A stretch of 64,000 bases of DNA. Source: an uncultured Clostridia bacterium. GTDB lineage: Bacteria; Bacillota; Clostridia; Oscillospirales; CAG-272. Location of the stretch: contig CALXUV010000046.1 of NCBI GenBank assembly GCA_944391815.1, positions 20,195-84,194 on the forward strand, in the 5' to 3' direction. Position 1 is the stretch's first letter. Each line of letters starts with the position of its first letter. The notes under the pieces were generated by a model. The model saw only the letters and a program-made list of their open reading frames with translations. It made no database searches and had not been told where the DNA came from. The translations under genes were made by a program, and so were the position numbers. Below are positions 5,701 to 25,241 of the stretch, one piece after another.

Positions 5701-8553
5701 TACGATTTCTTCTCTTTCATTGGTAAAACTATTACAGACAGCTCTTACCGCAACTGCCGCAAACTGCCATCCTGTGAAAGATTTATCGATTTTACATTCA
5801 AATGTTTCTGATGTTCCGTTTGAGTAGTACGGTATGGCGTAAAGTCTGACATTTCCCGAATAATCGGAAGAGCTTGCGTTTACCTTTACCCATGCTGAAA
5901 CCACATAAGTATTTCTACCGGAATTTGCAAATACAGTTTGTTTTATGCCGGCTGTTCTTCCTCCGCTGACGGTTAAAACACCGGAATTTTTGGCAGGATT
6001 ATATTTGACTGAATTCTGAACAGAAAAATATCCTGCCTGCGGCACTACCCAACCGTCACTGGAAGAATTGACCACATTGTATTTTGAACTGTTCACTTCC
6101 GGAGTCACCGAAAAATCCGGAAACTTCACATCATTTTTAAGATTTGTTTCTATAACAGTATTACAAAGCATCGAGCTGGGTTTATAAAACGCTCCGAAGC
6201 TGCCCACAGTGCTGTTTTCATAAGTTTTTACTTTGCATGGCGTTTCGCTTCGGTCTCCGACATGAGGATACTTGTCGGAAACTGTATAGTTTTCAAAATC
6301 GTTATACTGTAGCACGTTTCGTCCTTTGTCATCAAAACGGTAAACCGTCTTTATTCCGCTTTTTCCGTAGACGGCGGTGGTATTTGAACTTCTGTATTCA
6401 AAATTCACCTCGTCCAGTACTTCACTTTCTAAGATTGAAGCCTGCGGTACACTTCCATTTGATATGTATTTGTACATATTTTTCTCTACTATCGATGTGA
6501 CGCGTCCGTTGTCGTCATAACTTATAATGTATCTGATTCCGGATTCCGTTTTTATTTCTGTTATACGGTTCAAGGTGTAAACAAAATCTGTCACGTCTCC
6601 GTTATGCCGCGATATTTTTGTGATATAACCGTAAGCATTGCAACTTAAATTTGTCCTGTTGCCGCTGCTGTCGGTAATTGCACTCGGACCATAGGTTCCG
6701 TAATCTATTACAAACATTCTTCCCTGGTTCGCTTCCTGACCGTGTCTGCAACCTTTTACCTCGGTCAGACGTCCGGATGAATTATAATAATAATAGAATT
6801 CTTCTCCGTCATCGTATTCTTTTATCGACTTGATTTTTTGATTTTCGAATGTGATTTCGTCGCCTTTTTCAGGGACGGATTCACGGCTGAAAATCAATTT
6901 TTCCGGGGTTTCTCCCGATGATGCGAAATAGGTCGCCTGAATTCCGGTTGACTCGACTACATACCCGCCTTTTCTCTTCATAAGATGTCTCTTACCTTCG
7001 CCGTCAGCATAAAATTTCACAATATTTTCATTATTACTCGGCGCATCCACAAGTCTCTGTTCAACAGAAAATTTCCAATCGTCAAACATTTCTGTTTCTT
7101 TGTCGTAAATCATCGAAACAGGGAATGGCAAAAAGCTTTCCTCAGTATCAAGGGTAGGAACCGTAACGCTTAAATTTCCGGTACTCAGATTTACTTTTGC
7201 AACTCTGTTTGCACCCATGTCAAGAGTGTAATATTCCTGATCAGTCTTAAAATCTTCGTACGGCTCGTTTACCCGATATGAAACATAAAGCGCAGGTGTG
7301 TTTGAAGATGCATACTCGGAATAAAATTCGAGTACCGACGAACATGGATCACACGGATTGTTCTGCGACGATCTTATAAGAACTCCGTTGTTAGGCTGAC
7401 CGTTTAGCCAAGAGTTAAACGCATTTGATATTTCGAGCTGACCGAAATGAACAAATGACTCGTAAATTCCGCCGACCGGCGGTCTGAAATTCCAAAGAAG
7501 ACATCTGTTTTCCCAATCTTCTTCAAGCGTGTTTGTCTCAAGATATCTGAGTCCGCTGTCTCCTATGTATTTTACTTTTATTGCAGCTCTTACGTTACTT
7601 GCGCCTGCCGGAAGTTCAATCTTGCTCATGTCAACTTTAAAATATGTTTCATATTTATCAACATCATAGTTGCAGCAACCGTAATCGGTGACATCCAGTC
7701 CTATCCGACGTGTAATCATGTATTCCGGCTGATAATCGCCGTTTGAGCATACCGACTGAGATCTGATACAGCCGGAAATGTTGTCGCTGACATATACAGA
7801 CGGATCAATTTTGACCGGGAATACTCTTTCTTCCGATTCAATCCACTTTTTATCGGGCAAAACTGTGAAAATGTATTCGCTTTCAGTTATTTTTTCAAGA
7901 CTGTAATTTACTTTCCTGCTTGTTTTTCCTGCGCCGTCTTCCATAAACATTTCAGGCATTGTAAATCGCGGAATATCATTTTCTTCTCCTACGGGAGTTA
8001 CAAAACTAAGTCTACCCTCTTCTTCCCTTAGAACACATCCGTCAAGATTTAATCTGAATCTGAATTTATAGGACTTTTTCTTAGCTCTTAATGTTATCAC
8101 CTCTTTAAGTCCCATGGTATTGAATGTGTATGAAATATCAGCATTCTGGGATATTCCGGAGTATGTCACCTGTCCCTGATTTATGTCGCTTATGCCGCCG
8201 TAAGTTTCTCTTATCCTGTTTATTTTACCTTTGTTAAAGCGCTTTTTGGATGAGAGATACGTTATACTGAGTGTTACCCCGTCTTTTTTGATTTCAGCAA
8301 GTTTCTTATCTTTTTCCGGAGACGATGCGAACTTTACCTTCAAATCTCCTTTTTTGTTTTGGTAACAATCTTCTGCTTCATAAAGACTGTTATCAACAGT
8401 ATGAAATTTCCCGTCTTTTTCATCAACAAAATGAATAGGCGTGTTGTATATTTCGGCAAGAAAGCTGCCGTCCTTCATTTTATAGTGTTTCTGATTTGCT
8501 TTTCTTTTGCTTTTATCTTCACTTATTATTTGATTATTCAGTATTTTTTCCAT
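2728..8553 (-). CDS. WapA-like Rhs/YD-repeat polymorphic toxin (DNRLRE-like N-terminal region, CBM-like middle domain, Rhs core, His-rich C-terminal toxin)
   Basis: 1941 aa; YD repeats; NPIRYRSYYYDVETGLYYL..RYYDPRTGRFISPD and PVMYSDPSG core motifs; WapA-like N-terminus (KDGSFLAEIYNTPIHF...VDNSL); GAAAGGA RBS. Confidence 0.93.
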   Translation of the reverse strand: MEKILNNQIISEDKSKRKANQKHYKMKDGSFLAEIYNTPIHFVDEKDGKFHTVDNSLYEAEDCYQNKKGDLKVKFASSPEKDKKLAEIKKDGVTLSITYLSSKKRFNKGKINRIRETYGGISDINQGQVTYSGISQNADISYTFNTMGLKEVITLRAKKKSYKFRFRLNLDGCVLREEEGRLSFVTPVGEENDIPRFTMPEMFMEDGAGKTSRKVNYSLEKITESEYIFTVLPDKKWIESEERVFPVKIDPSVYVSDNISGCIRSQSVCSNGDYQPEYMITRRIGLDVTDYGCCNYDVDKYETYFKVDMSKIELPAGASNVRAAIKVKYIGDSGLRYLETNTLEEDWENRCLLWNFRPPVGGIYESFVHFGQLEISNAFNSWLNGQPNNGVLIRSSQNNPCDPCSSVLEFYSEYASSNTPALYVSYRVNEPYEDFKTDQEYYTLDMGANRVAKVNLSTGNLSVTVPTLDTEESFLPFPVSMIYDKETEMFDDWKFSVEQRLVDAPSNNENIVKFYADGEGKRHLMKRKGGYVVESTGIQATYFASSGETPEKLIFSRESVPEKGDEITFENQKIKSIKEYDDGEEFYYYYNSSGRLTEVKGCRHGQEANQGRMFVIDYGTYGPSAITDSSGNRTNLSCNAYGYITKISRHNGDVTDFVYTLNRITEIKTESGIRYIISYDDNGRVTSIVEKNMYKYISNGSVPQASILESEVLDEVNFEYRSSNTTAVYGKSGIKTVYRFDDKGRNVLQYNDFENYTVSDKYPHVGDRSETPCKVKTYENSTVGSFGAFYKPSSMLCNTVIETNLKNDVKFPDFSVTPEVNSSKYNVVNSSSDGWVVPQAGYFSVQNSVKYNPAKNSGVLTVSGGRTAGIKQTVFANSGRNTYVVSAWVKVNASSSDYSGNVRLYAIPYYSNGTSETFECKIDKSFTGWQFAAVAVRAVCNSFTNEREEIVDGVKKGEIIYNYIDRITFKFETDVSGTCYINDPRIVSVNGNIPNVCRYCVDDRGMIVEAVQDDGYYKTTTTTQKEKEKGKTITENKLINKNNEAFIETTIHYKKDGTIPERVEVQDYYGYKTSTHYENKKPTKQIIIGENDSTKVVFETTYAEKGSGYKEFLPTHHTENHSSTDYEYYDNSKKIKKVTVGGKETTCYEYGTDGSLSKLYNGQIYHNFGYTKGYLTEVNSNGQRTRYEYDKAGIESSVGSQYIKYEISEYEEYDDGSMRITRKYGNDTVSVLLDPMGNPVEKKRNNNVVSVTKYDAFYRVKEFFDYQKSEKYKYLYEETSGYLTNIYKAAIDAQYGEYYRSYDYDYMQKGRILGDYLNLGSDNVQNYDYIYRKAQTPPDYPYGYIYYPGDELLEVDYNSIVRNKIVKDSFNRVTERKITTYSFEKELLKEQFTYNSGNRLEEIKYSNLLYPSENNTINYTYDSLGNIKEQLHSRYVYCEPENQDIINFRAEDAGTAYYEYDDKNRISREDNYLLNKTFTYEYDDKGNMTVKKEYPYSRSPLYDYMLDKKYIMVYNGSGFNFDNRLISVSECNPVTCMCTQIDNITYDSKGKPVLYRGNSLSWDIRRLTGYGSNTFTYDSEGNRTGKNSIKYEYVDGKLRLEDRQEPYTGYTIQYIYGVDGIIGFHIGDTYYYYQKNLQGDVVELIRYVPSHDDKQLIATYVYDAWGNHKVLNHDGTENTDSSFIGNKNPIRYRSYYYDVETGLYYLHSRYYDPRTGRFISPDSADYLDPSMISGMNLYAYCGNNPVMYSDPSGNSLILTLVLVGLAAGAAIGFGGTIYSDYKDDGQVFNGSKSVGEYIKNTVIGGVVGAGIGAAVGITAPMMGSFLASSFSIGLPHVVGNTLVATSATVTGAQIAGTAAAVAGLVYLYERKPVAPRIKNNSKKQAYEKAFRKGGKKKPRGPENHGKGWHFHPSVPKNSKYFHWHYYFTLIFGLLNDQKNFE

Positions 8554-8599: not shown

Positions 8600-9649
8600 T
8601 CAATCCTTATACTGTATTTTTATTATCTGCGGGTGACAGTAACTGTCAGCAGTAGATATAGCAATATTTTTCTCTTTTTTTATACTTTTCAGCATATATC
8701 CGTAATTTTCTAAATCAGTAAAAGATTCGGTTATGTCAGTTTTAAAAAACTCACCGGCATCCATAAGCAGCTGAAATTTTTCGCTAGTCTTTGGCATATT
8801 GTCCCAGCAGGTATTAAAAGTACACCACGGCTGAAGAATTTTGTACACTCCGATTTCCGATGTATCTGATCCGAACTTTGGAATAAAAATCTCGGCTTTT
8901 TCCGGTTTGCCGATTCCTCCGAACGCACCGCTGAAAAAACCTGTTCTGAAAAGCAGTCTTTCTTCATTTCCGTTACTTTCACCCAAAGAAGAATAACTGC
9001 CGTAAACGTTGTTTACAGAAGGGAATGCACTTTCAACAGTTGTATCGAATATCAGTTTAGGTAAATAAAGGTTTATTTCAGCCGTCAGTTTTTTCACTTT
9101 TTCTTTGGCAAAAATTCTGACTTTGAAACGCCTTTCTTTTATTTCTGTTGCTTCCACGAATGCCTTTACAAATATGCCTTCGAACTTTTCTGCCGGAGCA
9201 GGAGTAACCGTTATAAACGGGACATGTTTTGCGTACATGAGTGTAAAACTCCTGGTATTCTCTCTTCTTATGTAAGGGTATTCGGTTTCAAGAGTAAAAA
9301 CGATATCACCGTTTTCAGAACTTAGATTGATACCGTTTAACCCGGGAAATACTTGATATTTTTCTTCTGTTTTTATTACTGCACGGTCAATGCTGTTTTC
9401 AAGAACAGCTCTTTTTCCGTAAAAGGATATTTCCGCGTCTGCTCCGCTGAAAACTTTTTTTCTGCCATCAACTCCCCATTTCAGGTCTACAAGTTTTCTC
9501 TCGTCAAGGGAATAAATAGGAACGGTAAAAATATATGCCGTATTTTTTCCTCTGTGTTTTCCCAAAATACGGTACGGATTTCTGAATTTGTCTTCTTGTA
9601 TTTTGATTTCTTCGTTTTCGGTTTTGCTAATCATTTCAATAAAGTTCAA
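8600..9649 (-). CDS. Stand-alone paralog of the Rhs N-terminal/DNRLRE-like region
   Basis: TTG start with AAAGGAGG RBS; DTTVES..P..N.YG and W...TCWDNMP motifs resemble DNRLRE domains; no YD repeats. Confidence 0.65.
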   Translation of the reverse strand: MNFIEMISKTENEEIKIQEDKFRNPYRILGKHRGKNTAYIFTVPIYSLDERKLVDLKWGVDGRKKVFSGADAEISFYGKRAVLENSIDRAVIKTEEKYQVFPGLNGINLSSENGDIVFTLETEYPYIRRENTRSFTLMYAKHVPFITVTPAPAEKFEGIFVKAFVEATEIKERRFKVRIFAKEKVKKLTAEINLYLPKLIFDTTVESAFPSVNNVYGSYSSLGESNGNEERLLFRTGFFSGAFGGIGKPEKAEIFIPKFGSDTSEIGVYKILQPWCTFNTCWDNMPKTSEKFQLLMDAGEFFKTDITESFTDLENYGYMLKSIKKEKNIAISTADSYCHPQIIKIQYKD

Positions 9650-12618: not shown

Positions 12619-15600
12619 ATGGAAAATAACAAAAAGAAAACAGATATTAAGAACATCGGTATACCGAAAATACCTGATAATTTTAACATTTTTCCGGAAA
12701 TAACGGAAAATGACATAGATCATGAGGACGTTAATGGCAGAACTTCGTTCAAAAAAAGATATATTTTAAAAAACGGGAACATTGCCGATATTTACTTTGG
12801 AAATATACTCCACCGCATTTCAGGTACATCCGATAAATGGGAAGAAATCGATAACTCTTTCGAGGAAATAGGAGATTTTTTCGAAAATAAAAAAGGGCTT
12901 TTCAGAACACAGTTCAGAAAAATCCCGTCGGAAAAATCAAATTTATTTCAGATTGAAAACAATAAAAGAAAAATCGGGTTTGAATTTTTATCAACAAAAA
13001 AGAAAAAGTTCAGACCAGGTAAAGAAGAAAAACCAAAAAGCAACTCTTCTTTCGAAAAATCAGCAGCCGGTCACACCTGCGGCAAAATAAGGTATCCGGA
13101 AATAACCGGAAACGTAGATCTTGAATACACTGTGACATCAGCCGGCGTTAAAGAAAACATCATTATCAAATCTAAGAAAAGATCATACATTTTTTCTTTT
13201 AAAATAAAACTCGATGGTTATACGATTACAAAAAAAGACGGCCGCATGGAATTCGGATTTACCGGAGAAAACGGTGAATATACACCTGAATTCAGACTTG
13301 CACCTTTATTTATGACAGACAGAACCGGTGCTGCAAGTTCAGATATCAGTTATTCACTTACTGCTCTTGGAAAAGATGAATACATGCTTACAATAAAGCC
13401 GGACAGCGACTGGATAAACAGCAGTGAACGTATTTTCCCGGTAAAAATCGATCCTACTATTGAATATCTGACATCACAAATCACCAACATTACTTCGGTT
13501 TCATATTCTTCAAACTACGATTATCTCGGCGGTATGTTCGAACAATACCGCAAAGTAGGATATGACGAGCAGGATAACGAATATATAAGCTATTTTAAAG
13601 TTTCGACTGAGCCCATACCTGAAGGTTATGAGGTAAATCAAGCGTATATGAAAATATTTACATCCGAAAGCCGGGGAATATTACTTGACGTTTATCCTCT
13701 TGATATCAACTGGAGTTTTGAATATCCTTACTTTTATGATACTGATCAGAATGCGATTGCAAGAGGCATACACGGCGGAGGCTACGAAACGCGCATAGAC
13801 GTAACCTCAGCTTATGCACGTTGGGCTCGTAACCCAAGCGAAAATTACGGTTTCCTCGTTAAATCGTATTACAACTGTTGCGATTCATGTTCTGACGTAT
13901 GGCAGTTTTATTCCGAAGAAAGCGAATATCCGCCTGTTTTTGTCGTTGAATACAGAGCTTCTGCCGAAAACCGAAAATTCAGACCTGAGCATGAAACAAT
14001 CGAAATCGATATGGGATTAGCCGGTAACACCAAAGTTGATCTTTTTAACGGCGGAGTAATTATTCAAACTCCTGACCTAAAAACCAAGGACGGCAAAACC
14101 GTACCCATGACAAGCCTTCTTTTTAACAATGACGCCGTCGAACGTTCCTCTGTTATGAAAGATAAGTGGAAGACGATAAGAGATTTTAAATTAGAATTAA
14201 AACACGATAATAAATTAAACACTGATTTTATAAAATACACCGATATATTAGAAAATCTGACCATCTTAGATAATAAATATCCCTCGGCAAATCTGTTTTA
14301 TACACTGGATGGTTTGTCTTGTCTGCAAACATCAGAAAAGGACCCTGTACATAACACCGATATCAGTGTGTTCAGATTTACTGATGCTTCCGGCAATATG
14401 TGGAAAATAACACCCGAATGTTATTTTTACACCGCAAAAACCGGTGAAGTCTACAAATATAGCAAAGTAATTGCTTCAAATAGTTATAATTGCAGTCAAT
14501 GCGAAAATAAAACATACTGTGAATGCTATAACGCTCAGAGTTGTCCGGATGGAAGCTCATGTTGTTCACAATGTCATGTCGAAACCAAAAACTGCACAAA
14601 AATTGCCATTATTGAGGATAATAACGACAACATTTATGAAATTTTCAAAGATAATGCTGACACCCTTTGCATAAGAACAACCGGCGAAGACTCCTATATT
14701 GTGGCAAAATATCAGTTTTCAGGCGGCAAACTTTCAAAAATCACCTATTGGAACGGTGACTTTGCAAATTACAGTTATAATTCACAAAACCGGATAAGCG
14801 AAGTTTCTGACAGTAACGGAATCAGGTTTACCTTTGATTATTACAATAGTGAAATCCGAACACAGCAATATGCCGTTGCGCTCATCAGAAAAAATCCGCT
14901 TTACTCTTTGATTACAGACTCACGGACTGTTAATGCCAACACAAATCGAGATCAATTGAGTTTTACTTATTATTCTGACAGAACATCAGTCAAAAATTCG
15001 ACTGGTATAAAAACAGTTTATGTTTTCGATAATGAGGGGCGTGGAAATGTTGTATATACCGATAAAAAAAATACCGGTCTTTCAATCGGAAAATCAACCC
15101 CGACAAATATAAGTACTTATAGAAAAAAATTTAACAGCAGTACCACTAGATACAAGTTTTTGGAAGTAAGCGAAAACAACGACGAAAGAACTAACCTGCT
15201 TGGTGATACCGACTTCAGTAATGTCATCAGATCAAACGATATAGTAAATTCAAGAAGCTGGTATTGCTCAAGTCTGACCCAGCAGATCAGCAACCTGAAT
15301 TATGTTCCGAACACGAAATCATTCAGGCTACAAGTCGGGAAAATTTCTCAGAAGATCAGCATGGATGTTTTTAACCTCCAGGGTAATATGTTGATTTTCT
15401 CGGTGTGGGCAAAAATTGAATCAGATGCCTACAGTTTGTCCGCAAATCCACCGAAAGTAACCATCAAGCGAACATATTTAAGACCGGACGGTACAGAAAC
15501 TGAATTTAACTATTCGAATTGTAATATTTCGAGCAACATGAATGAGTTCAGATTCGATCTGTCGTATGATGATTGGCAGTACGCTGCAATCCCGATAGAG

Positions 15601-18588
15601 CTATTTGCTGATTTAGGCAAAGACGAAAATTGCAGACTTAAAGAAATTACCGTAGAACTTGCTAACCTCGGAAACTCAGCTGACGCTGTTTATTTCAATA
15701 ATCCCAGATTGTCTGAATGCTACGGAGTAAAACTTGAAAATTACATCAAATCATCTGATCCTGCATCTACGTCATCGGCTGTAACTCCTAAAAAAGAACT
15801 TTATTACAAAAGAGACGACGGCACTTTCATAACAACGCTTTTCGCTGATGATAAAATGAATATAGTCAAGGAAGAAAAAATAAAGAAAAACAACGGTGAT
15901 CCGTACATTACGACATTTGAATATTATGATAATAACAGACTGAAAAAAACTGTCGACTATAAAGGAATCCCGACAACTTTCGAATACAACGAAAAGGGAC
16001 AGGTTACCAAAAAAACAACCGGTGAAGATGAAAAAGCTTTGAGCATCAACTACGTTTATGATGAAAATCTTAACCTTATTTCCGAAACAAATGAATACGG
16101 AATTGAGACGGATTACGAGTATGACGAACTCAACAGACTAAGAAAAATTACCGATTCAGGTAACAAGACGACTTATTTTTCCTACAATTCAAAAAATCAG
16201 CTGATCAAGGTATCATCTGAAGAAAACCCTTCCGAATCAGCTGACAATTCCAACACTTTGAGTTACAATAAAGGACTTAATACCGGCATGTCAGTTTCCG
16301 GGAATGAATATAAAATCGATTTTGACGGAGAAGGCAGAAAAAAGCAGGTTTGGCTTAACAACCTGACTCTTGCAAGTTATGAATACGGCTCGCGTTTTAA
16401 CACATCTTATACCGACAAAATCACCCCATGTGTCGGTAACAGTCAATTTATTGAATACAACGCAGCAGGCGATCCGAAGCAATCATATTATTACGAAGGA
16501 GGCACTCAGAAATACATAAATAAATTCGAATACGACTGTAACGAAAAATTGTTCAGAGTTTTTGATTACCCGGCAAATAATAAACTGGAATTTACTTATG
16601 ACAAATACGGCAACTTAACTAATGTAAAAAAAGCAAATTCTGTCGATAGCACGAGCTTCAGCCCGTATGTTTCGTACACTTATGATTATGATCATAAAAA
16701 CATGCTGACATCTTATACACTGCACTCAGCCAAAGAAGACGGCAGATCGTATAACTTGTTTTATGACAAATACGATATCAGTTATTCAAACGGAAGCACC
16801 ACTCCGAACGACTATGAAATAGAAACTCTTGAAGATGAAGTAAACAAAGTAAAGGCTGTAGGATTTGGAAGCGAAGAACGTCAGAAAGATTACCATTCGA
16901 GAACTACTAAAAAAATATTGATTAATGATAGTGATCAACCTATTGACGAATGTTCGTATACATATGTATACAACACTCATTCAACCGGTTTCAGCATCAC
17001 AGCTGATCGATACGGCAGAAAACCCGATGAGAGCAATAGGTGTGAATATTATACATCCGACGCATCAGGAAACATAAGTAATTTTTATACCTGCGGAAAA
17101 AAATATATAAACAGTAACAACGGTACAGATAACTATGAAGACATAAACTGTACAGATAATTCATATACATACGACAATTCAAACAGGCTTATCTGTCATG
17201 AAACTGACTCGAAAAAATATGAATTCACTTACGACAACAGAGGAAATATGACAGAAAAGAAAATTTACAGCAAAACTCAAAACGATCCCTCAACTGATTA
17301 TACACTTGACAAAATTTACATATACGGTTATAATAACACCGGAACGATCAAGGACACTTTGATGTCGGTAACCGAAAAAAGCGGATTAGAAGACACCGGA
17401 ACGATACTTTATCAAAATGAGTACAACTCCGGCGGATTTCCGACTGAATACCGTGGAAAGACTGTTGAATTTGACGGTCTTAATCAGCTTTCAAGTTACG
17501 GCGATCTGAACTTTTCTTACTCCGCATCCGGAATGCGGCTTACTAAGGGCGATATAACGTACGATTATTACGGCGATCTGCTGATAAAAGAAACAAAGCA
17601 GAATTCATACACAATTGAATATATACACGGAATAAACGGACTTATCGGATTTGTTTACAACGGAACGCCTTACTATTACATCAAAAATATTTTCGGTGAC
17701 GTATACTTTATTATTGACAGAAACGGCAACACTGTAGCTGAGTATGAATACGATGCTTGGGGTAAATGTACAATAATAAGTGAAACAGGCGGCATCGGAA
17801 CAGTTAACCCGATACGTTACAGATCGTACTACTATGATGTAGAGACAGAATTTTATTACCTCCAGTCAAGATATTACGACCCTGAAAATGCAAGATTTAT
17901 AAGTCCTGACAAAACAGATTATCTTGACCCTCAGTCTTTCGGCGGGCTTAACCTGTATGCGTATTGTCTTAACAATCCGGTTATACATAGTAAAGAATCC
18001 GTTGTTTTTGACGGTTCATCCGATATTTTATCAATCTCAGCTGATGAATCTATTGGATTTAACAGCAAGCAATGTGGAAATAGTTCTGCTTTATTTAATA
18101 ATGTCATAGCCAGTGGTTCATTTAAAAATGGATTATTATTCGGAAAAGGGATACTAACCGGCTTATATTTCAGCGGAAATTCAAGAATACAAATAAGCTT
18201 AAAAAACAGAAAATTAATTTTAGGGACTTTTGGAAAATTTTCACTACTTAATGCTACTGGACAAATTGGAGTCGGCAATGATATTTTTAACGTTTCATTA
18301 GTTGGAGTTGGAGATATTGGAAACATCAGTGGCATGGCTGGTTTACTAATAAATCCACATAAAAATACATACTTTGCCGGTATAGAAGCAAAAATTTCTG
18401 TATTTAGTGCCCGTGGCGGAGTACAATTTGAAATTTTTAATACACAAATTGAAATGGGTGGATCCGTAAGCGCATTGTCTGCGGGAATTCAATTTGGAAT
18501 CGGAATTAAAAATGGTGAATTTTATTATAAAAGTGGATTTGCTTTGTTGTTTGGTTTTGATTTTTATATAAGAATAAAATTTGCATAG
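12619..18588 (+). CDS. Second WapA-like Rhs/YD-repeat polymorphic toxin, divergently transcribed
   Basis: 1989 aa; AAGGAG RBS; same architecture as the left Rhs; core motifs NPIRYRSYYYDVETEFYYLQSRYYDPENARFISPD; Gly-rich beta-strand C-terminus. Confidence 0.93.
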   Translation: MENNKKKTDIKNIGIPKIPDNFNIFPEITENDIDHEDVNGRTSFKKRYILKNGNIADIYFGNILHRISGTSDKWEEIDNSFEEIGDFFENKKGLFRTQFRKIPSEKSNLFQIENNKRKIGFEFLSTKKKKFRPGKEEKPKSNSSFEKSAAGHTCGKIRYPEITGNVDLEYTVTSAGVKENIIIKSKKRSYIFSFKIKLDGYTITKKDGRMEFGFTGENGEYTPEFRLAPLFMTDRTGAASSDISYSLTALGKDEYMLTIKPDSDWINSSERIFPVKIDPTIEYLTSQITNITSVSYSSNYDYLGGMFEQYRKVGYDEQDNEYISYFKVSTEPIPEGYEVNQAYMKIFTSESRGILLDVYPLDINWSFEYPYFYDTDQNAIARGIHGGGYETRIDVTSAYARWARNPSENYGFLVKSYYNCCDSCSDVWQFYSEESEYPPVFVVEYRASAENRKFRPEHETIEIDMGLAGNTKVDLFNGGVIIQTPDLKTKDGKTVPMTSLLFNNDAVERSSVMKDKWKTIRDFKLELKHDNKLNTDFIKYTDILENLTILDNKYPSANLFYTLDGLSCLQTSEKDPVHNTDISVFRFTDASGNMWKITPECYFYTAKTGEVYKYSKVIASNSYNCSQCENKTYCECYNAQSCPDGSSCCSQCHVETKNCTKIAIIEDNNDNIYEIFKDNADTLCIRTTGEDSYIVAKYQFSGGKLSKITYWNGDFANYSYNSQNRISEVSDSNGIRFTFDYYNSEIRTQQYAVALIRKNPLYSLITDSRTVNANTNRDQLSFTYYSDRTSVKNSTGIKTVYVFDNEGRGNVVYTDKKNTGLSIGKSTPTNISTYRKKFNSSTTRYKFLEVSENNDERTNLLGDTDFSNVIRSNDIVNSRSWYCSSLTQQISNLNYVPNTKSFRLQVGKISQKISMDVFNLQGNMLIFSVWAKIESDAYSLSANPPKVTIKRTYLRPDGTETEFNYSNCNISSNMNEFRFDLSYDDWQYAAIPIELFADLGKDENCRLKEITVELANLGNSADAVYFNNPRLSECYGVKLENYIKSSDPASTSSAVTPKKELYYKRDDGTFITTLFADDKMNIVKEEKIKKNNGDPYITTFEYYDNNRLKKTVDYKGIPTTFEYNEKGQVTKKTTGEDEKALSINYVYDENLNLISETNEYGIETDYEYDELNRLRKITDSGNKTTYFSYNSKNQLIKVSSEENPSESADNSNTLSYNKGLNTGMSVSGNEYKIDFDGEGRKKQVWLNNLTLASYEYGSRFNTSYTDKITPCVGNSQFIEYNAAGDPKQSYYYEGGTQKYINKFEYDCNEKLFRVFDYPANNKLEFTYDKYGNLTNVKKANSVDSTSFSPYVSYTYDYDHKNMLTSYTLHSAKEDGRSYNLFYDKYDISYSNGSTTPNDYEIETLEDEVNKVKAVGFGSEERQKDYHSRTTKKILINDSDQPIDECSYTYVYNTHSTGFSITADRYGRKPDESNRCEYYTSDASGNISNFYTCGKKYINSNNGTDNYEDINCTDNSYTYDNSNRLICHETDSKKYEFTYDNRGNMTEKKIYSKTQNDPSTDYTLDKIYIYGYNNTGTIKDTLMSVTEKSGLEDTGTILYQNEYNSGGFPTEYRGKTVEFDGLNQLSSYGDLNFSYSASGMRLTKGDITYDYYGDLLIKETKQNSYTIEYIHGINGLIGFVYNGTPYYYIKNIFGDVYFIIDRNGNTVAEYEYDAWGKCTIISETGGIGTVNPIRYRSYYYDVETEFYYLQSRYYDPENARFISPDKTDYLDPQSFGGLNLYAYCLNNPVIHSKESVVFDGSSDILSISADESIGFNSKQCGNSSALFNNVIASGSFKNGLLFGKGILTGLYFSGNSRIQISLKNRKLILGTFGKFSLLNATGQIGVGNDIFNVSLVGVGDIGNISGMAGLLINPHKNTYFAGIEAKISVFSARGGVQFEIFNTQIEMGGSVSALSAGIQFGIGIKNGEFYYKSGFALLFGFDFYIRIKFA

Positions 18589-18599
18589 CAGGAAAAAGT

Positions 18600-19145
18600 A
18601 TGAACAAACATTATTACAACTTAGGTAATACTTTTAAAGTAAAAATTCGTAAACATTATTGCTATAAATGTAAAACAAAATTATCTATTGCTAAACATTA
18701 TAAGGTCGTATCGCAAAAATCCATTGATGCTAAATATTATGATTTCAGCATTGGCATTGATGGTGGAGAAATGATAGGGCCATGTGAGTTTATTCATAAC
18801 GTATTTTATTGTCCTAATTGTAGTGAATTTATAGAATTTATAACGCAATTAAATTTCGAAGACATCGATAATTGGATAAAAAAACTTAACAATAAATTAT
18901 TTAAAAAAGGACACAGCATTGAAATCAAAAAAACATATGAAACAAAAGAAAATAAATATATTGATAAAATAGATTCTTTGGACAATATTAAAAATCTTTG
19001 TTTACGAGTTCATAAAAATGATAAGACCATAATTATTACCAAATTTCCGTTAATACGAAAAAAAAATTGGGAACGTCCTTATTATTTCAAAATTAATAAA
19101 AAAGAATTTATGAAATCTATTAGAAAACATTTTGTTAAAGTGTAA
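18600..19145 (+). CDS. Putative cognate immunity protein with CxxC...CxxC
   Basis: 11 nt after the Rhs stop, AGGA RBS, AT-rich; CYKC and CPNC motifs. Confidence 0.7.
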   Translation: MNKHYYNLGNTFKVKIRKHYCYKCKTKLSIAKHYKVVSQKSIDAKYYDFSIGIDGGEMIGPCEFIHNVFYCPNCSEFIEFITQLNFEDIDNWIKKLNNKLFKKGHSIEIKKTYETKENKYIDKIDSLDNIKNLCLRVHKNDKTIIITKFPLIRKKNWERPYYFKINKKEFMKSIRKHFVKV

Positions 19146-19346: not shown

Positions 19347-20243
19347 ATCGATTTATTAAATTCATTAGAGTGTACAATAATAAGTGAAACAGGCGGCATC
19401 GGAACAGTTAACCCGATACGTTACAGATCGTACTACTATGATGTAGAAACGGGGCTGTTTCTAGTAACCTCACGCTACTATGATCCAGAGGTCGGACGTT
19501 TTATTTCACCAGATACCAATGAATATCTTGATCCTGAAACAATCGGTGGGCTTAATCTTTATTCCTATTGTTTGAATAACCCAATAAACTATTATGACCC
19601 TGACGGTCATTGGGCAATGCCTAATTGGTTGAAATGGGTAATTGGTGGAGTTGTTATCGTTGGTCTTGGAATTGCAGCTGCACTCACTGGAGGTGCAGCG
19701 GGCGTAATATTAGGCGCCGCATTTTATGGCGCAGTAACAGGCGCGGTTAGTGGGGCTTTGGTAAGTGGTGTAATCGGGGGAATATCTTCTGCGGTTTCTG
19801 GTGATGGTTTTTGGAGTGGTTTTGCAGATGGCGCCGCAGATGGTTTTATGTTTGGTGCAATTATTGGAGGTGCTACTAGTGCGTTAACAGCGGGTATAAA
19901 TATTGCTACTGGTGCCGTTAAAATAGTTGGCACAGCACAAAAAACGGGTTCGATATTTCATCGTTTTGCCAGCAACATTCAAGCTGGCAAAATGTCAATG
20001 GCTATAGGAAGATATTCGGAAATCCATCTGAATCGAAGTAAAGGATTGGGAATAAAAGGTTTTAGACCAGATGTTACTGGAATTACAAAAAATGGGTTAA
20101 GAATTGTTGAGGTTGTAAGTTCAACTCAAACATACGCTAGCCAAGTTACTAAGGTTACAACTATGATGGGAAGATATTCACATGTAACAAATGGATTAGT
20201 TCTTGATGGTTTGCATTTGTTGCTAAAATGGTTCGTTTTCTAA
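19347..20243 (+). CDS. Orphan Rhs toxin-tip cassette, putative PD-(D/E)xK-like nuclease tip
   Basis: 19371-19447 identical to 17767-17843; frame open from 19347 (ORF-track start 19572 is TTG); DPDGH motif; C-terminal RPDV...VEVVS..Q. Confidence 0.8.
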   Translation: MDLLNSLECTIISETGGIGTVNPIRYRSYYYDVETGLFLVTSRYYDPEVGRFISPDTNEYLDPETIGGLNLYSYCLNNPINYYDPDGHWAMPNWLKWVIGGVVIVGLGIAAALTGGAAGVILGAAFYGAVTGAVSGALVSGVIGGISSAVSGDGFWSGFADGAADGFMFGAIIGGATSALTAGINIATGAVKIVGTAQKTGSIFHRFASNIQAGKMSMAIGRYSEIHLNRSKGLGIKGFRPDVTGITKNGLRIVEVVSSTQTYASQVTKVTTMMGRYSHVTNGLVLDGLHLLLKWFVF

Positions 20244-20261
20244 ACTAAAGGAGAAGATTTT

Positions 20262-20873
20262 ATGGTTGATGTTCCAATATATTTAAAGGAATGTACTAAA
20301 ATAAAAAAAGTTCAGAAAGATGCTATAATTCTACAAGTTTTATGTGATTGTGGTTGTTCATCCTTATATTTATTAGAAAATATTTTAGATGAGGAAGAAG
20401 CTAATATTATAAAAGCACATGAAAAGAGATTTAGTAAATGGAGCCGTATAGAAAATTATACCGATCCAATTACGCAAATTAGATATTTAGTTGCAAGAAA
20501 TGCTTTTGGGAGAATTTTTGATAAAATTCCGACAAGCGAAATTCAGGATATTAGGAGAACGCAGATTATAAAAGTAGAATGTGGTGAGTGTGGAAGGCAA
20601 CTCGTAATATATGATAGTCGCTATCATGGTTATGATGCAATCGTAACAAAAAATCAATTTTCTACCGGTTGCAAAAAATATCAGTATAGGTTACTACAAA
20701 AAAAATCAATGGAGGTAGAGATAAAAATTAGGAATGATTTGACATATGATGAGTTTTGCGAAGAATCCGAAGAAAATTCTATCAAAGAATTTTCAAATGC
20801 TTTTTCAAGTATAGAAATTTATGGAATTAAAGATGGCAAGAAAAAGAAATATTTTGAAAGAGAAACAGCATAG
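20262..20873 (+). CDS. Putative immunity protein
   Basis: AAAGGAG RBS directly after the tip stop; CDC and CGEC motifs; low GC. Confidence 0.7.
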   Translation: MVDVPIYLKECTKIKKVQKDAIILQVLCDCGCSSLYLLENILDEEEANIIKAHEKRFSKWSRIENYTDPITQIRYLVARNAFGRIFDKIPTSEIQDIRRTQIIKVECGECGRQLVIYDSRYHGYDAIVTKNQFSTGCKKYQYRLLQKKSMEVEIKIRNDLTYDEFCEESEENSIKEFSNAFSSIEIYGIKDGKKKKYFERETA

Positions 20874-20911
20874 CTTGTCGAAAACATAAGACGGGAATCC
20901 CACTAATAGGT

Positions 20912-21120
20912 TAGGCGAGTTGCCCGTTGTGGCAACTCCTTATCCTGCTTGTCAATTCCAAATCTTTGCCACAAGGATTGTTGTAAAAGTAGTAAATTTT
21001 GTGGCAGGATAAGAAAAATGCAACAAAGATGATTTTTGCATAAGAACAATCGGAAAGCCAGACTTTCTCTCCATCCACACGAATATACACAGTTTTACTG
21101 TGTATATTCGTGTCATCTCC
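20912..21120. repeat. Structured non-coding repeat, copy A
   Basis: Homologous to 22159-22367 at offset 1247; includes a perfect 16-bp hairpin ACACGAATATACACAG-TTTTA-CTGTGTATATTCGTGT (21077-21113). Confidence 0.9.
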
Positions 21121-21876
21121 GAAGAGACAGGACTTAATTACCTCCAGTCAAGATATTACGACCCTGAAACTGCAAGATTTATAAGTCCTGACGAAACAGA
21201 TTATCTTGAACCTCAGTCTTTCGGCGGGCTTAACCTGTATGCGTACTGCTTGAATAATCCTATTAAGCATATAGATCCAACAGGACATGCTCCCAAATGG
21301 TGGCAGTGGTTAATTGGCGGTATAGGTATAGCATTAATTGCCGTGGCCGCAGGTTTGGCTATTTGGGGAACTGGTGGTGTTGCAGCATTTGGATTAGGGG
21401 CATTAATTGGATCGGTAAGTGTTGGTGCTATAGGTGCAGGCGTTGGTGCGGGTATAGGTTATGCAGTCGGCGGCAAAGATGGATTATGGCAGGGTGCGCT
21501 AATTGGATTAGGTGTCGGAGCTGCCGTAGGTTTTATTGTCGGCGGAACCATTGGTGCAAACACCTATAGTTCAATGTTAGGTACTAATTTTGGTAAAATG
21601 GGTACCGTTGTAAAACATCCGGGAATAAAAGTAAATTGGTCGCAAAGTATGATTCATGGACCTGAAAGAATGTTACAACGTGGAGTTACTAAAAGAGTCG
21701 TAAATTCAACAGTTCGTAAAGGAATTGCGCTTTCTCAAACAGGTGGAAAATTCGCTTTTGTTACTAAAAAAGCCTTTGCTGTTGTATCTTCTTCAGGTGT
21801 CCTTATAACAACTTATGGAAAAGATTTTTATGATTCAGGCATGTTAGAAATTATAAAGGCTCTATTTGGAGGATAA
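21100..21876 (+). CDS. Orphan Rhs toxin-tip cassette, putative BECR-fold (DUF4258-like) RNase tip; start codon doubtful
   Basis: Core YLQSRYYDPETARFISPD...DPTGH; tip HGPERMLQRGVT...GKFAFVT...VVSSSGVLITTY; the GTG start lies in a hairpin arm with no SD. Confidence 0.8.
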   Translation: MYIRVISEETGLNYLQSRYYDPETARFISPDETDYLEPQSFGGLNLYAYCLNNPIKHIDPTGHAPKWWQWLIGGIGIALIAVAAGLAIWGTGGVAAFGLGALIGSVSVGAIGAGVGAGIGYAVGGKDGLWQGALIGLGVGAAVGFIVGGTIGANTYSSMLGTNFGKMGTVVKHPGIKVNWSQSMIHGPERMLQRGVTKRVVNSTVRKGIALSQTGGKFAFVTKKAFAVVSSSGVLITTYGKDFYDSGMLEIIKALFGG

Positions 21877-21879
21877 AGT

Positions 21880-22137
21880 ATGTTATTGATTATTAATGCT
21901 TTATTAGATTTGTGGGATCCATATGAAATTTATTTGTTTCCAAAAGATGAATATACAGGTTATGCCATTAAAATTCATGAATTTATTGAGAAACATAAAG
22001 TTATTAATATAGAAACACTTACAAATTTTGTTTTTACAATTTTACCTCCTATAAGCAAAGATATTGATAATAATACCTTATCAAAAGTTGAATATGAGAG
22101 ATTTGCAAAAACATTATTATTAGTATTAAAAGAATGA
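21880..22137 (+). CDS. Putative immunity protein, DUF1871-like
   Basis: WDP...PKDEY motif; GGAGG RBS inside the end of the toxin gene. Confidence 0.7.
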   Translation: MLLIINALLDLWDPYEIYLFPKDEYTGYAIKIHEFIEKHKVINIETLTNFVFTILPPISKDIDNNTLSKVEYERFAKTLLLVLKE

Positions 22138-22158
22138 GTGTGATTATCGCTTGTAAAG

Positions 22159-22367
22159 TGGGCTAATTGTCCATTGTGGCAATTCCTTATCCTGCCTGCT
22201 GGGTTCAAAGCTCTACTATAAAGGATTGTTGTAAAACTATGGATTTTATGGCAGGATAAGAAAAATGCAACAAAGTTGATTTTTGCATAAGAACAATCGG
22301 AAAGCCAGACTTTCTCTCCATCCACACGAATATACACAGTTTTACTGTGTATATTCGTGTCATCTCC
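22159..22367. repeat. Structured non-coding repeat, copy B
   Basis: Same element as 20912-21120; identical 16-bp hairpin at 22324-22360. Confidence 0.9.
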
Positions 22368-23141
22368 GAAGAGACCGGACTTTATTACCTCCAGGCAAGA
22401 TATTACGACCCTGAAACTGCAAGATTTATAAGTCCTGACAAAACAGATTATCTTGACCCTCAGTCTTTCGGTGGGCTTAACCTGTATGCTTACTGCTTGA
22501 ATAATCCGATTAAGCATATAGATCCAACAGGACATTTTGTGATGTCAATTGGTTTGTTGGTACTTATAGGCTTTGGTGTAGGAGCAATTATCAGTTCTGG
22601 AACAAATATATTAACTCAAAGTATAGATAAAGGTTGGGAAAATATTAATTGGTGGCAAGTAGCATTAGAGGGCTTAATAGGTGGTATAAATGGAGCTTTG
22701 GCTATGTCTACATTAAACGCATTAGCTTTATGCGGAATAGGTGCGGGTCTTGGTTTTATCGGAGGTCTTGGAGGTGCTCTTCTCAACGAAGAAAAATTAA
22801 ATTCGCTTGAGACGTGGTCGAATATTTTAAATTCAACGGTAATTGGTGCAATATCCGGGTTAGGCGCTGGCGCCAGAAATGCTATATCTCTGAACAAAGC
22901 GAAAAAAACCACCGAATTTTTAAAGGCAGCATCCAGTTATGAAAAAGTATTAAATAAAATTGCAGCTGGTGGGTATAAAAATTTAGCAGGCGCAGCTGGT
23001 GCGAGATTCTTAACAGGAAGGGCATTAAATAATGCTTGGAATAAAATGGTATTATCACAAATATCAAGATCACTTGTTAAATCACTTTTAAAATCTGGGG
23101 CTATAACATTGTCGTTTAATTTAGCGATAGTTTATTCATAA
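22347..23141 (+). CDS. Orphan Rhs toxin-tip cassette, hydrophobic/helical tip; start codon doubtful
   Basis: Rhs core motifs plus DPTGH; Gly-rich TM-like region and basic helical C-terminus. Confidence 0.8.
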   Translation: MYIRVISEETGLYYLQARYYDPETARFISPDKTDYLDPQSFGGLNLYAYCLNNPIKHIDPTGHFVMSIGLLVLIGFGVGAIISSGTNILTQSIDKGWENINWWQVALEGLIGGINGALAMSTLNALALCGIGAGLGFIGGLGGALLNEEKLNSLETWSNILNSTVIGAISGLGAGARNAISLNKAKKTTEFLKAASSYEKVLNKIAAGGYKNLAGAAGARFLTGRALNNAWNKMVLSQISRSLVKSLLKSGAITLSFNLAIVYS

Positions 23142-23158
23142 TTTTTTCGGAGGAAAGT

Positions 23159-23683
23159 TTGAAAAATTTTTTAATTATATCTGTGTTAACATTATTAATC
23201 CATATTCTTTTTTTAATATATTTCGTTAAATTTGGAAGAAATTTTAAAAAAAAAAGAAAAATGAATGTCGTAGAAGCAACAGCTGCCATATCTTTTCCTT
23301 ATGAGCCTGTCTTGCTTTGGGGAATAGGATTCTTGCAATGTATTTTGGTTAACGTTGTAATATATATTGATCTTGTAAAAGACCAGAATACTTTAGATAT
23401 AATTTCCATGAGACTTGAATTTACAACACTAATTTTGACAATAATTATTTTCATTTATACGAGGTGGAACATCGAACTCAAAGATGACGTAATAATAATA
23501 CAAGGCTATTTCAAAAAAAAAATTATTCATTATTCGGATATAACTGAAATAAAGCAAACAATGTTCACATATAAATTCTTATCAAATAAAAAGCCCTTAT
23601 TTTCCCTGAATGTAAGGTATCATCATTTTGACCTGATTTTTGTAGAAAAAATTAGAATTAAAATGCAAAATAACATACCATGA
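23159..23683 (+). CDS. Putative membrane immunity protein (TM helices plus PH-like tail)
   Basis: TTG start with GGAGG RBS; three hydrophobic segments; AT-rich. Confidence 0.7.
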   Translation: MKNFLIISVLTLLIHILFLIYFVKFGRNFKKKRKMNVVEATAAISFPYEPVLLWGIGFLQCILVNVVIYIDLVKDQNTLDIISMRLEFTTLILTIIIFIYTRWNIELKDDVIIIQGYFKKKIIHYSDITEIKQTMFTYKFLSNKKPLFSLNVRYHHFDLIFVEKIRIKMQNNIP

Positions 23684-23718
23684 TACAAAAGTCTGGTTAT
23701 TCAATAATGTTTAAATAT

Positions 23719-23746
23719 ATACTGCCCAGCTCACGCCGGGCAGTAT
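23719..23746. terminator. Possible intrinsic terminator
   Basis: ATACTGCCC-N10-GGGCAGTAT perfect 9-bp stem after the immunity gene; weak U-tract. Confidence 0.5.
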
Positions 23747-23862
23747 TATTGATGTTTTGACAAAAAAAGTATATTATATAGTAGCTTAAATCAAATACAC
23801 GTTTTATAAACAAACTCTTACACCATTTTAAAAAAAGAAGACTAATAAACTAAACAAATTTA

Positions 23863-24727
23863 CCGGCGGCATCGGAACAGTTAACCCGATAAGGTACAGA
23901 TCATACTCTTATGATTCTGAAACCAAACTTTATTACCTCCAGTCAAGATATTACGACCCTGAAATGCAAGATTTATAAGTCCTGACAAAACAGATTATCT
24001 TGAACCTCAGTCTTTCGGTGGGCTTAACTTGTATGCTTACTGCTTGAATAATCCGATTAAGCATATAGATCCAACAGGACATTTTGTGATGTCAATTGGT
24101 TTGTTGGTACTTATAGGCTTTGGTGTAGGAGCTATTATTGGTGCAGGTACAAGTGTTGCAGGACAGTATATTGCTAATGGATATAGTTGGGATAACTTTA
24201 GTTGGGGGCAACTTGCTCTGGATACAATATTAGGTGGTGCAAGTGGAATGTTATCGATGTCTCCATTAGGAAGATTAGCTATGATAGCGGCAAATGCAGG
24301 AATTGCATTTGTGGGCGCTGTAGGTGGACATTTGATAAATGGCAGTGATTTTGATGCCTCGACTTGGTTAGATATAGGAATATCTACAATGTTGGGAGTC
24401 GCCGCAGGTGCTTTAGGAGGAAGGGGAGCTCTTAACGTTAAAGGATTAAATGAAGCTAGAAAAACCGCAGGCTTTATAAGAGCATCTGGTTTATATGATA
24501 AAGTAATGACAAAAGCAGTTACTGGTGGATATAGAACAGCTGGTATTGCCGCAAATGCATTAAGATTGTCTGGATATAATCTAACAAGACAGTGGAACAA
24601 AATGATAGTAAAGCAGGCCGGTGATGCTTTGGCTAAATCATTGGCGATAAGTGCAGGAGTTTTATTTTCAGGTTCCGCCGTTAAACCGTTAATTGTTAAT
24701 CAGTCTGTTTCCTTTTTTAATCTTTGA
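23863..24727 (+). pseudogene. Orphan Rhs toxin-tip cassette with frameshifted core; tip frame 23963-24727 intact
   Basis: Core homology starts at 23863 (GGCGGCATCGGAACAG); CCTGAAATGCAAG vs CCTGAAAATGCAAG in the parent is a 1-nt deletion; DPTGH then tip. Confidence 0.8.
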
Positions 24728-24743
24728 TCTGAGGTAGTATTTT

Positions 24744-25241
24744 ATGTGGGATTTTCTTGCGTTTTGTTTAGGAGTATTTTTAAAAAGCATTACACTGCTG
24801 ATTGTAAAGCTATGGAAGAAAAAATATTTTAAAAAAGAACTTTACTGTGACGAAAAGGTTGGTATTATACTTTTATTTAGTGATGCGTTAATATTACTTA
24901 CACCCTTTTTGGTTTTTTTGGGAATATTCGATGGTTTTACCGGTCCAGTATTAGTAATTATTGTTCTAATCACAAACGCCTTTCTTTTGCCCATGTATGT
25001 ATACAATTCAACGACATGCATTTACTTGGAAGAAGATTATCTTTGCAAGAGAAATCTAGTTATTTTTAAAAAAATACAAATAAATAAAAACACAATAATT
25101 CGTCGCTCGTGGTTTAAATGTGTGATCAGCACTGATAAAAAGAAAATAATTATACCTGATCCCCGAAATCTTGAAGGACCATACATTATGTTTCTGTACA
25201 GAATAAATGAAATAATTAATTATAAAAAAGAGATATCTTAA
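24744..25241 (+). CDS. Putative membrane immunity protein
   Basis: GAGGT RBS 16 nt after the tip stop; three hydrophobic segments. Confidence 0.7.
   Translation: MWDFLAFCLGVFLKSITLLIVKLWKKKYFKKELYCDEKVGIILLFSDALILLTPFLVFLGIFDGFTGPVLVIIVLITNAFLLPMYVYNSTTCIYLEEDYLCKRNLVIFKKIQINKNTIIRRSWFKCVISTDKKKIIIPDPRNLEGPYIMFLYRINEIINYKKEIS

Follow-up and report, generated by a model that had tools for sequence, protein, structure and literature searches.

The DNA analysed here is a stretch of 64,000 nucleotides from an uncultured Clostridia bacterium (the window; contig CALXUV010000046.1 of assembly GCA_944391815.1, positions 20,195 to 84,194 of the forward strand). It contains two Rhs/YD-repeat genes in divergent orientation, both with RHS/YD repeats and an Rhs-associated core. 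In one of them, the right Rhs, the second DPxG motif at the end of the core is missing together with its catalytic Asp, and this state is the trait of a whole branch of toxins, not a one-off lesion. With the tip of the right Rhs and its partner gene come a beta-meander toxin domain and a four-Cys immunity domain, families that neither Pfam nor NCBIfam contains. The tip is likely not cut by the Rhs protease. Our preferred explanation is a membrane-active beta toxin that stays tethered to its shell or is clipped in some other way, and we give it about an even chance of being correct. The features that carry the argument are the following (window positions).

12619..18588, + strand: right Rhs/YD-repeat polymorphic toxin gene, 1989 amino acids, open reading frame (ORF) intact.
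17749..17985, + strand: Rhs-associated core (C-terminal plug/aspartyl protease domain), amino acids 1711-1789, TIGR03696 E 5.3e-18.
17893..17928, + strand: putative retained part of the protease motif, from Arg1759 (ENARF) to Asp1770 (LDPQS, first motif), located in the translation.
17971..18000, + strand: junction NNPVIHSKES, with Lys1792 (17992-17994) at the place of the catalytic second Asp of DPxG.
17989..18090, + strand: Ser-rich linker, amino acids 1791-1824, predicted disordered, sequence not conserved.
18091..18585, + strand: predicted all-beta toxin domain of 165 amino acids (1825-1989), with one strand of 10 residues and six strands of 21-23 residues.
18600..19145, + strand: candidate cognate immunity gene, 181 amino acids, four conserved Cys (CxxC...CxxC), soluble.

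Two further elements of the window served as internal comparisons.

2728..8553, - strand: left Rhs, 1941 amino acids, with a canonical NNPVMYSDPSGN junction.
19572..25241, + strand: four orphan tip cassettes with immunity candidates, each with DPxG.

The core end of the right Rhs reads NNPVIHSKESVVFDGSS, with no D-x-x-G after NNP; NNPVIHSK corresponds to amino acids 1785-1792 (17971-17994). The translation contains RYYDPENARFISPDKTDYLDPQSFGGLNLYAYCLNNPVIHSKESVVFDGSS and its C-terminal end is FGFDFYIRIKFA. The core profile TIGR03696 (Rhs_assc_core) scores 65.3 bits on this protein against a cut-off of 32.5 and covers only profile positions 1-69 of 76, whereas coverage is 1-75 in the left Rhs and extends up to 76 in the orphan cassettes. 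In a survey of the same class TIGR03696 had 409 matches in 127 of 399 genomes, and the best 150 of the 409 all reach profile position 73-76. The upstream part of the protease motif appears to be retained. Arg1759 and Asp1770 would be the conserved Arg and the first Asp, judging by the alignment with the left Rhs and by the published R...D...D spacing (PMC13018210, PMC9935623); in autoproteolytic cores the two motifs are arranged as DPxG-x18-20-DPxG. The DNA similarity between the right Rhs and the orphans stops at 17989, just past the NNPVIH codons.

All six frames of the genome (2.35 Mb, 81 contigs) were scanned with a regular expression, which returned 16 matches, 12 of them true Rhs core ends. 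In eleven of these the eighth residue past NNP is Asp (seven DPxG, two DHxG, one DExG, one DKGG), and Lys1792 of the right Rhs is the sole exception. The initial annotation, made from the letters of the stretch, had proposed that the right Rhs lacks the second DPxG and that the other modules keep it. Both statements were borne out, the first by Lys1792, by the core model ending at 69 of 76 and by the other reading frames, the second by the left Rhs, the genome-wide count and the orphans at 19572, 21100, 22347 and 24029, which read DPDG, DPTG, DPTG and DPTG. The start coordinate that it gave, 17960, misses the reading frame by one base, as the codon begins at 17959. A DPxG hidden in another frame at the junction was ruled out, since none is encoded in any frame. 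An assembly artefact was also ruled out because P0038, a metagenome protein from an independent assembly, has the identical junction type (NPVIHGKESVVFDGSS).

The published cleavage chemistry gives this residue its weight. The account of Rhs1 in PMC8636562 places the catalytic Asp, D1338, within the second DPLGL and the start of the toxin directly after the motif; D1338N abolished both C-terminal cleavage and toxicity. One Arg and two Asp are described as required for catalysis in Rhs proteins (PMC9935623). The claim of the initial annotation that self-cleavage relies on Asp residues of the core agrees with these two accounts. The same source (PMC9935623) reports that in teneurin the last Asp is absent and autocleavage does not occur. 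In a bacterial teneurin-like protein the residues are given as R2103, D2116 and D2140, a motif described as missing from mammalian teneurins (PMC13018210).

The tip belongs to a conserved family. Searching by word index with the 209-residue tip, we obtained 34 proteins at E<=0.01 that are 47-84% identical to it and whose Rhs cores clearly differ from one another. When the beta domain was used as a profile in an exhaustive search, 97 cluster representatives scored E<=1e-3, 65 of them reaching 1e-10 and 16 reaching 1e-30; the domain was C-terminal in every case. The tip has no Pfam or NCBIfam match at E<=0.1, and no Pfam family covers the beta domain in 34 relatives. The best hit in a profile search of PDB sequences had an E of only 0.21, and ESM Atlas look-ups of the tip and of the immunity protein returned unnamed clusters only, below 0.9. 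When the domain profile was run against 400 genomes of the same class, the only real match was in the window's own genome, with two more at E ~8e-4 over short stretches, so the same-class genomes gave no context.

D-x-x-G is absent from all 17 junction-spanning rows of the alignment of relatives, the consensus of which is NNPVxYKQ(R/S)PVSSGGS. Core ends were then classed in 127 family proteins. Fifty-three were recognisable, 30 without D-x-x-G and 23 with it; the remaining 74 have no core end in the fragment or were missed by the regular expression. A tree of 81 domains separated the two types. It was made by a quick IQ-TREE search after 46 rows had been dropped because they covered fewer than 135 profile positions or started after position 75. 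The 20 rows with D-x-x-G are split from the 27 rows without it, the window included, by a branch of length 1.03 with an SH-aLRT (Shimodaira-Hasegawa-like approximate likelihood ratio test) support of 99. The state is known for 47 of the 81 domains and a single change suffices to explain it, which none of 500 label shuffles equalled. All 30 proteins of the Asp-less branch that could be scored lack the second Asp. When metagenomes were scanned with the D-x-x-G branch, 44 loci were recovered; 32 of them were analysed, and D-x-x-G is present in all 17 that have a recognisable in-frame core end. The tree is unrooted; since nearly all Rhs proteins have the motif, a loss is favoured over a gain. The initial annotation had concluded that the tip is either not released or cleaved differently. 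This was the right question to ask, because the catalytic residue is gone and its loss is a stable trait of the whole branch.

The D-x-x-G sister branch (for example P0052, P0062 and loci L010-L029) shares the beta domain with profile E values as low as 1e-21, likewise at the C-terminus of an Rhs protein and with a four-Cys immunity protein. It differs in that D-x-x-G is present and is followed by a Trp-rich, helix-like stretch (HWPQWIKD...), and in its lower mean GRAVY (grand average of hydropathy), +0.07 against +0.33 in the branch without the motif. In the sister branch the domain is joined to the core through a normal D-x-x-G and presumably cut free. In the Asp-less branch the boundary of the cassette is a few residues further upstream, and non-conserved sequence stands in place of the second Asp and the scissile site. 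One metagenome relative, P0090, has a peptidoglycan-binding domain (PF01471, E 1.6e-16) between DPTG and the beta domain, and in other relatives this place is taken by long inserts rich in Ser/Thr, Lys or Ala. Two predicted proteins are chimeric. In P0022 a QueC-like N-terminus (PF06508, PF00733 and PF02540 in precomputed Pfam assignments) is joined to the beta domain, and in P0036 the final 38 residues of the tip follow an unrelated N-terminus of 285 amino acids. These are probably assembly or recombination remnants.

The gene following the tip is the candidate immunity partner. It has an AGGA 6 nucleotides ahead of its ATG and is separated from the stop codon of the tip by 11 nucleotides. 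A four-Cys ORF of 175-181 amino acids adjoins the tip in all four loci with downstream DNA (the window, L002, L003 and L004). The protein has 43 homologues, none of them named, and no Pfam or NCBIfam match at E<=0.1. The immunity profile also matches the ORF that follows the tip in the D-x-x-G branch, with E values from 3e-7 to 3e-29, at 25 of the 32 loci. In the seven other loci the tip is interrupted, so that the chosen ORF fell within the tip. The matches in the D-x-x-G branch always span only profile positions ~5-87 of 180 and the proteins have about 90 amino acids. Immunity proteins of the Asp-less branch (~175-181 amino acids) are thus about twice as long; only the N-terminal four-Cys half is common to both, and the extra ~100 amino acids belong to no known family. 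The toxin and immunity domains are common to both branches and the difference is confined to the junction. As the same four-Cys immunity domain follows both, the payload is the same in both branches.

The immunity protein of the Asp-less branch is soluble, cytoplasmic and probably zinc-binding, and the same holds for 22 of the 25 sister loci with a match. A hydrophobic segment is found in the other three D-x-x-G-branch homologues (L010 3625-4338, L030 751-1395 and L047 2629-3087). Two of these are tandem four-Cys duplications in which the segment separates the copies; in the third it is C-terminal. A complex prediction for the beta domain and the 181-residue protein scored 0.23 against a mark of 0.32; it was run without controls and says nothing either way.

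Selection acts very differently on the two parts of the tip. The tip of the window was compared with the two full-length relatives for which DNA is available, L002 and L003. The ratio of nonsynonymous to synonymous substitution rates (dN/dS) of the beta domain is 0.09, 0.14 and 0.07 at 76-87% amino acid identity, and that of the junction and linker is 1.3, 3.2 and 0.8 at 16-22% identity. The payload is strongly constrained, as these low ratios in the domain against 0.8-3.2 in the linker indicate, and no such constraint is seen where any substitute for the cleavage motif would lie. Junctions in the Asp-less branch vary and show no replacement motif; examples are KQRPVSS, TQESIS, NKGSFP and SKESVV. 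The linker of the window contains 28% Ser, and the AlphaFold2 confidence (predicted local distance difference test, pLDDT) is below 50 for tip residues 1-44.

The structure predictions of the tip agree with the initial description of it as rich in beta-strands, as both AlphaFold2 models contain strands only. The model of the 209-residue tip (26 sequences) has a mean pLDDT of 69.9 and values of ~80-88 over residues 45-209. The model of the 165-residue domain (59 sequences from both branches) is a seven-strand meander with a pLDDT of 94.2 and a predicted template modelling score of 0.79; the five models range from 86.9 to 94.2. The domain of the window consists of 16.4% Gly, 11.5% Ile, 10.9% Phe and 9.7% Leu, has 21 charged residues in 165 (12.7%) and a GRAVY of +0.43. 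Its last strand has two faces, FYSFLFFFIIF and EYKGALGDYRK. Twenty columns are at least 80% conserved in both branches, of which 11 are Gly; the conserved polar columns (tip numbering) are Y70, Q78, K93, S95, N98, D119, T122, R152, E165 and S174.

Structural comparison gave only weak rows. Those from Foldseek were the pore forms of the membrane attack complex, gasdermin and pleurotolysin at a TM-score of ~0.1, and then porins. For the exhaustive structural aligner, the tool itself gives Z 7-8 as typical of unmatched models, and its rows for the 165-residue model have to be read at that noise level: TamA barrel stretches at Z 8.5-8.6 (root-mean-square deviation, rmsd, 2.9 A over 101 residues), FyuA at Z 8.7 with an rmsd of 11.8 A, LptA at Z 7.8 (4.2 A over 104 residues) and the TamB beta-taco at Z 5.6. 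A small DUF3224-type barrel was found at Z 8.0 and many porins and autotransporter barrels at Z 6-7.5. In its predicted structure the domain has no known fold and resembles long-stranded amphipathic sheets, and we assign it to no family. The suggestion of the initial annotation that the tip forms a beta-barrel pore or a fibre is unproven: the barrel matches are at a noise-level Z of ~8.5 and the immunity protein of the Asp-less branch is soluble.

Taken together, the right Rhs carries a cassette of an undescribed toxin-immunity family, made of a flexible Ser-rich linker of ~35 amino acids, a very hydrophobic 165-residue seven-strand beta-meander and a four-Cys immunity gene. The Rhs aspartyl protease would be unable to cut this tip. 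The toxin would then be tethered to the shell by its linker, like the C-terminal domains of teneurins, or be clipped within the linker by another protease; both possibilities are suggested by a linker that is flexible, unconstrained and Ser-rich. The beta domain may act at the target membrane: it could insert there as an amphipathic sheet or bind lipid. Such an action is suggested by the hydrophobicity of the domain, by the peptidoglycan-binding insert of P0090 and by immunity proteins that are now and then anchored in the membrane; the two faces of the last strand and, among the noise-level structural rows, the barrel stretches of TamA and the lipid-carrying jellyroll LptA are further hints. 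That the right Rhs is uncleaved, tethered and active at the membrane is what we infer. A more specific version is conceivable and rather doubtful: the branch gave up autoproteolysis altogether, the tethered beta domain emerges from the ~200-kDa shell and inserts, still joined to it, into the membrane of a neighbour, and the longer immunity protein doubles as a shield on the producer side against a toxin that is not hidden by the cocoon any more.

Known systems resemble the right Rhs in part. One of them is Tse5 of Pseudomonas aeruginosa. Tse5-CT is helical with glycine zippers; the domain of the right Rhs is predicted to be all-beta and its host organism has Bacillota relatives. As described in PMC10684867, the Rhs shell of Tse5 holds a hydrophobic, membrane-active C-terminal toxin that must not reach the producer's own membrane. 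The same account has Tse5-CT cut at DPXG-x19-DPXG and delivered by type VI secretion; cleavage of this membrane pore former's toxin is essential, and D1141A equals a deletion of tse5. The right Rhs has no such cut site. Teneurins share the core plug without the last catalytic Asp, and their C-terminal domain is described as staying covalently attached (PMC9935623, PMC13018210). They are, however, eukaryotic receptors with NHL, FN-plug and other domains, and none of these, nor TTR or other teneurin domains, was found in the right Rhs at E<=0.1 with Pfam and NCBIfam. Bacterial teneurin-like proteins, unlike the right Rhs, are reported to keep both DPxG motifs and to be cleaved (PMC13018210).

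The TcC/BC components of Tc (ABC) toxins and Rhs1, RhsA and RhsP of type VI secretion systems also have a YD-repeat cocoon, a core plug and a variable C-terminal toxin. According to the sources cited, all of them cleave after DPxGL with one Arg and two Asp (PMC8636562, 10.1101/2024.02.26.582050); the right Rhs lacks the second Asp and the site. WapA-type proteins are similar in that they too are polymorphic YD-repeat toxins, are accompanied by an immunity gene as well as orphan cassettes and occur in a Bacillota-like genome. They differ in having a signal peptide, wall-binding domains and a cut at TDPSG (PMC12704120), whereas the right Rhs has neither a signal peptide nor the second motif.

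Several observations weigh against a tethered or otherwise clipped membrane toxin. Non-cleavage of the right Rhs is deduced from its sequence. Toxicity is reported to depend on cleavage in every Rhs tested, including the pore former Tse5 (PMC10684867), so an uncleaved toxin might be inert. No sign of a secretion route (signal peptide, LXG or PAAR) was seen in the right Rhs. The immunity protein of the Asp-less branch has no hydrophobic segment, and immunity to pore formers that act from outside is usually provided by membrane proteins. Foldseek returned nothing at E<=1e-3 for either model, and the fold matches at Z 7.5-8.7 lie within the usual best score of unmatched models. Finally, K93, D119, R152 and E165, which are conserved in both branches, could form an active site. 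This last point belongs to the strongest competitor, in which the beta domain is a soluble toxin of the target cytoplasm, either a binding protein or an enzyme of new fold, and which is compatible with either release mode. We regard it as less likely than membrane action and still a serious possibility. The at least 80% conservation of those four residues across both branches speaks for it, as do the soluble immunity proteins of the Asp-less branch and of 22 of the 25 matched sister loci, the small soluble barrels among the structural rows (2q03 at Z 8.0, LptA at Z 7.8) and the lower hydrophobicity of the D-x-x-G branch. It is opposed by a GRAVY of +0.33 to +0.43 with 13-15% charged residues, which is far from ordinary soluble proteins, and by the absence of any enzyme-family match (Pfam and NCBIfam for the tip of the window, Pfam for 34 relatives). 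More than half of the columns conserved in both branches are Gly (11 of 20), and the peptidoglycan-binding insert of a relative and the hydrophobic segment of some immunity proteins also fit a soluble toxin poorly.

That the Rhs core protease still cuts the tip, at a shifted site and with Arg1759, Asp1770 and another acid (Glu1793 in SKES or Asp1798 in FDGSS), appears improbable. The Arg and the first motif Asp are still present, a Glu and an Asp lie within seven residues of the junction, and the motif tolerates change, the Pro of DPxG being dispensable in other cassettes of this genome (DExG, DHxG, DKGG). Yet the nearby acids are not conserved: the consensus YKQRPVSSGGS is acid-free and other junctions read YNKGSFP, YSQTPIGS and FSSYCGISG. 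The linker evolves without constraint, and in Rhs1 a change of the second Asp to Asn is by itself reported to stop cleavage (PMC8636562). A decaying or inactive cassette, left by a crossover a few codons too far upstream that destroyed the cleavage site, is very improbable. Single changes do remove the Asp in orphans, as in the VPTG for DPTG of L019, and truncated tip copies exist (L004 5978-6337, with an internal deletion, and several short fragments). However, the ORF is intact at the main, expressed position of a 1989-residue gene, the junction type has been kept over a diversified branch fused to many Rhs cores, the domain evolves at a dN/dS of 0.07-0.14 and the immunity gene is adjacent in four of four loci. 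Least probable of all is a membrane anchor or translocator that holds or exports the Rhs shell like the beta domain of an autotransporter. The domain is C-terminal and all-beta and ends with an aromatic followed by a small residue, and autotransporter translocators are among the structural rows (NalP Z 8.7, BrkA Z 7.5, Hbp Z 7.2). Against this, the related records name Mollicutes, Bacilli, Bacillales and Clostridia, which have no outer membrane, and the rmsd to the translocators is 9-10 A. The domain is also part of exchangeable cassettes that have small partner genes of their own, orphan copies included, which is the signature of toxin-immunity pairs, and in the sister branch it stands after a cleavage site.

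Cleavage is reported as required for toxicity in Rhs1, Tse5 and an Rhs of A. dhakensis, and cleavage after the motif is described in Tc/ABC toxins too. Searches of an open-access library turned up no description of bacterial Rhs toxins without the second motif. A selected and widespread Asp-less branch next to an Asp-keeping sister with the same toxin and immunity domains offers a way to ask whether release is always needed. If autoproteolysis was indeed abandoned, the two branches would be a natural experiment with one payload and two release modes. The route by which a hydrophobic payload gets out of the cocoon could be addressed in the same way, as could the possible origin of non-cleaving shells like those of teneurins. 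In practical terms, DPxG is used to mark the start of the toxin, and pipelines that cut there would miss or mis-delimit such tips.

The orphan cassettes bear on how the junction may change. The tract of DNA that the right Rhs shares with them is the following.

17841..17989, + strand: homology tract shared with the orphan cassettes, found with blastn, ending just ahead of the DPxG position.

Its 149 nucleotides are 89.9% identical to 21123-21271 and to 22370-22518, and a longer tract of 205 nucleotides (17785-17989) is 87.3% identical to 23862-24065. An 80-nucleotide tract of 98.75% identity lies upstream of the first orphan. It had been proposed at the outset that swapping in a downstream cassette would restore DPxG. 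With tracts of 149-205 nucleotides to three cassettes this is plausible; no recombination event was observed. A crossover within the tracts would plausibly exchange the tip and import DPxG, altering the release mode and the payload together. In the first orphan tip (19572-20243) a small soluble domain comes after hydrophobic helices rich in glycine, and the partner of this tip (20262-20873) is a soluble Cys-rich protein (CDCGC...CGECG); neither belongs to a Pfam or NCBIfam family.

Asp-less junctions are found on other tips as well. Two further Asp-less Rhs tips, unrelated to the one described here, are present on the related contigs L004 and L005 (L004 3-659 and 4425-5249). The tip NDPIGITYSGFSVGRS is beta-rich with a C-terminal hydrophobic helix, and the hydrophobic segments of the tip NDPVNYRQRPVSFG are helical; a membrane protein comes after each of the two tips. 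This suggests that Asp-less junctions may go with membrane-type tips. At L019 ~1909 (+ strand) an orphan reads NNPVMNVVPTGRF, in which VPTG has Val for the catalytic Asp and the motif is otherwise canonical. Across the fetched loci, a set biased by the way in which it was fetched, D-x-x-G is absent from 5 of 31 distinct core ends.

The rest of the right Rhs is that of a polymorphic toxin, with a variable tip, an adjacent immunity gene and orphan cassettes downstream. Its YD (RHS) repeats are matched by PF05593 (E 3.6e-19), TIGR01643 (E 1.9e-13) and YD_repeat_2x, and an NCBIfam scan places a DNRLRE domain at amino acids 297-443. The protein was scanned for a signal peptide, a helical transmembrane window and the PVxxxxGE motif, and has none of them. 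Ahead of the YD shell there is a dense Cys cluster (amino acids 625-659, 14491-14595) with nine Cys in 35 residues, which the left Rhs does not have. Near the left Rhs, a 349-residue ORF (8600-9649, - strand) matches no family. The 705-residue ORF upstream of the left Rhs (10177-12294, - strand) has no recognisable domain other than a weak YD repeat and a C-terminal TIGR03696 fragment (profile positions 13-46 of 76, E 1.1e-6).

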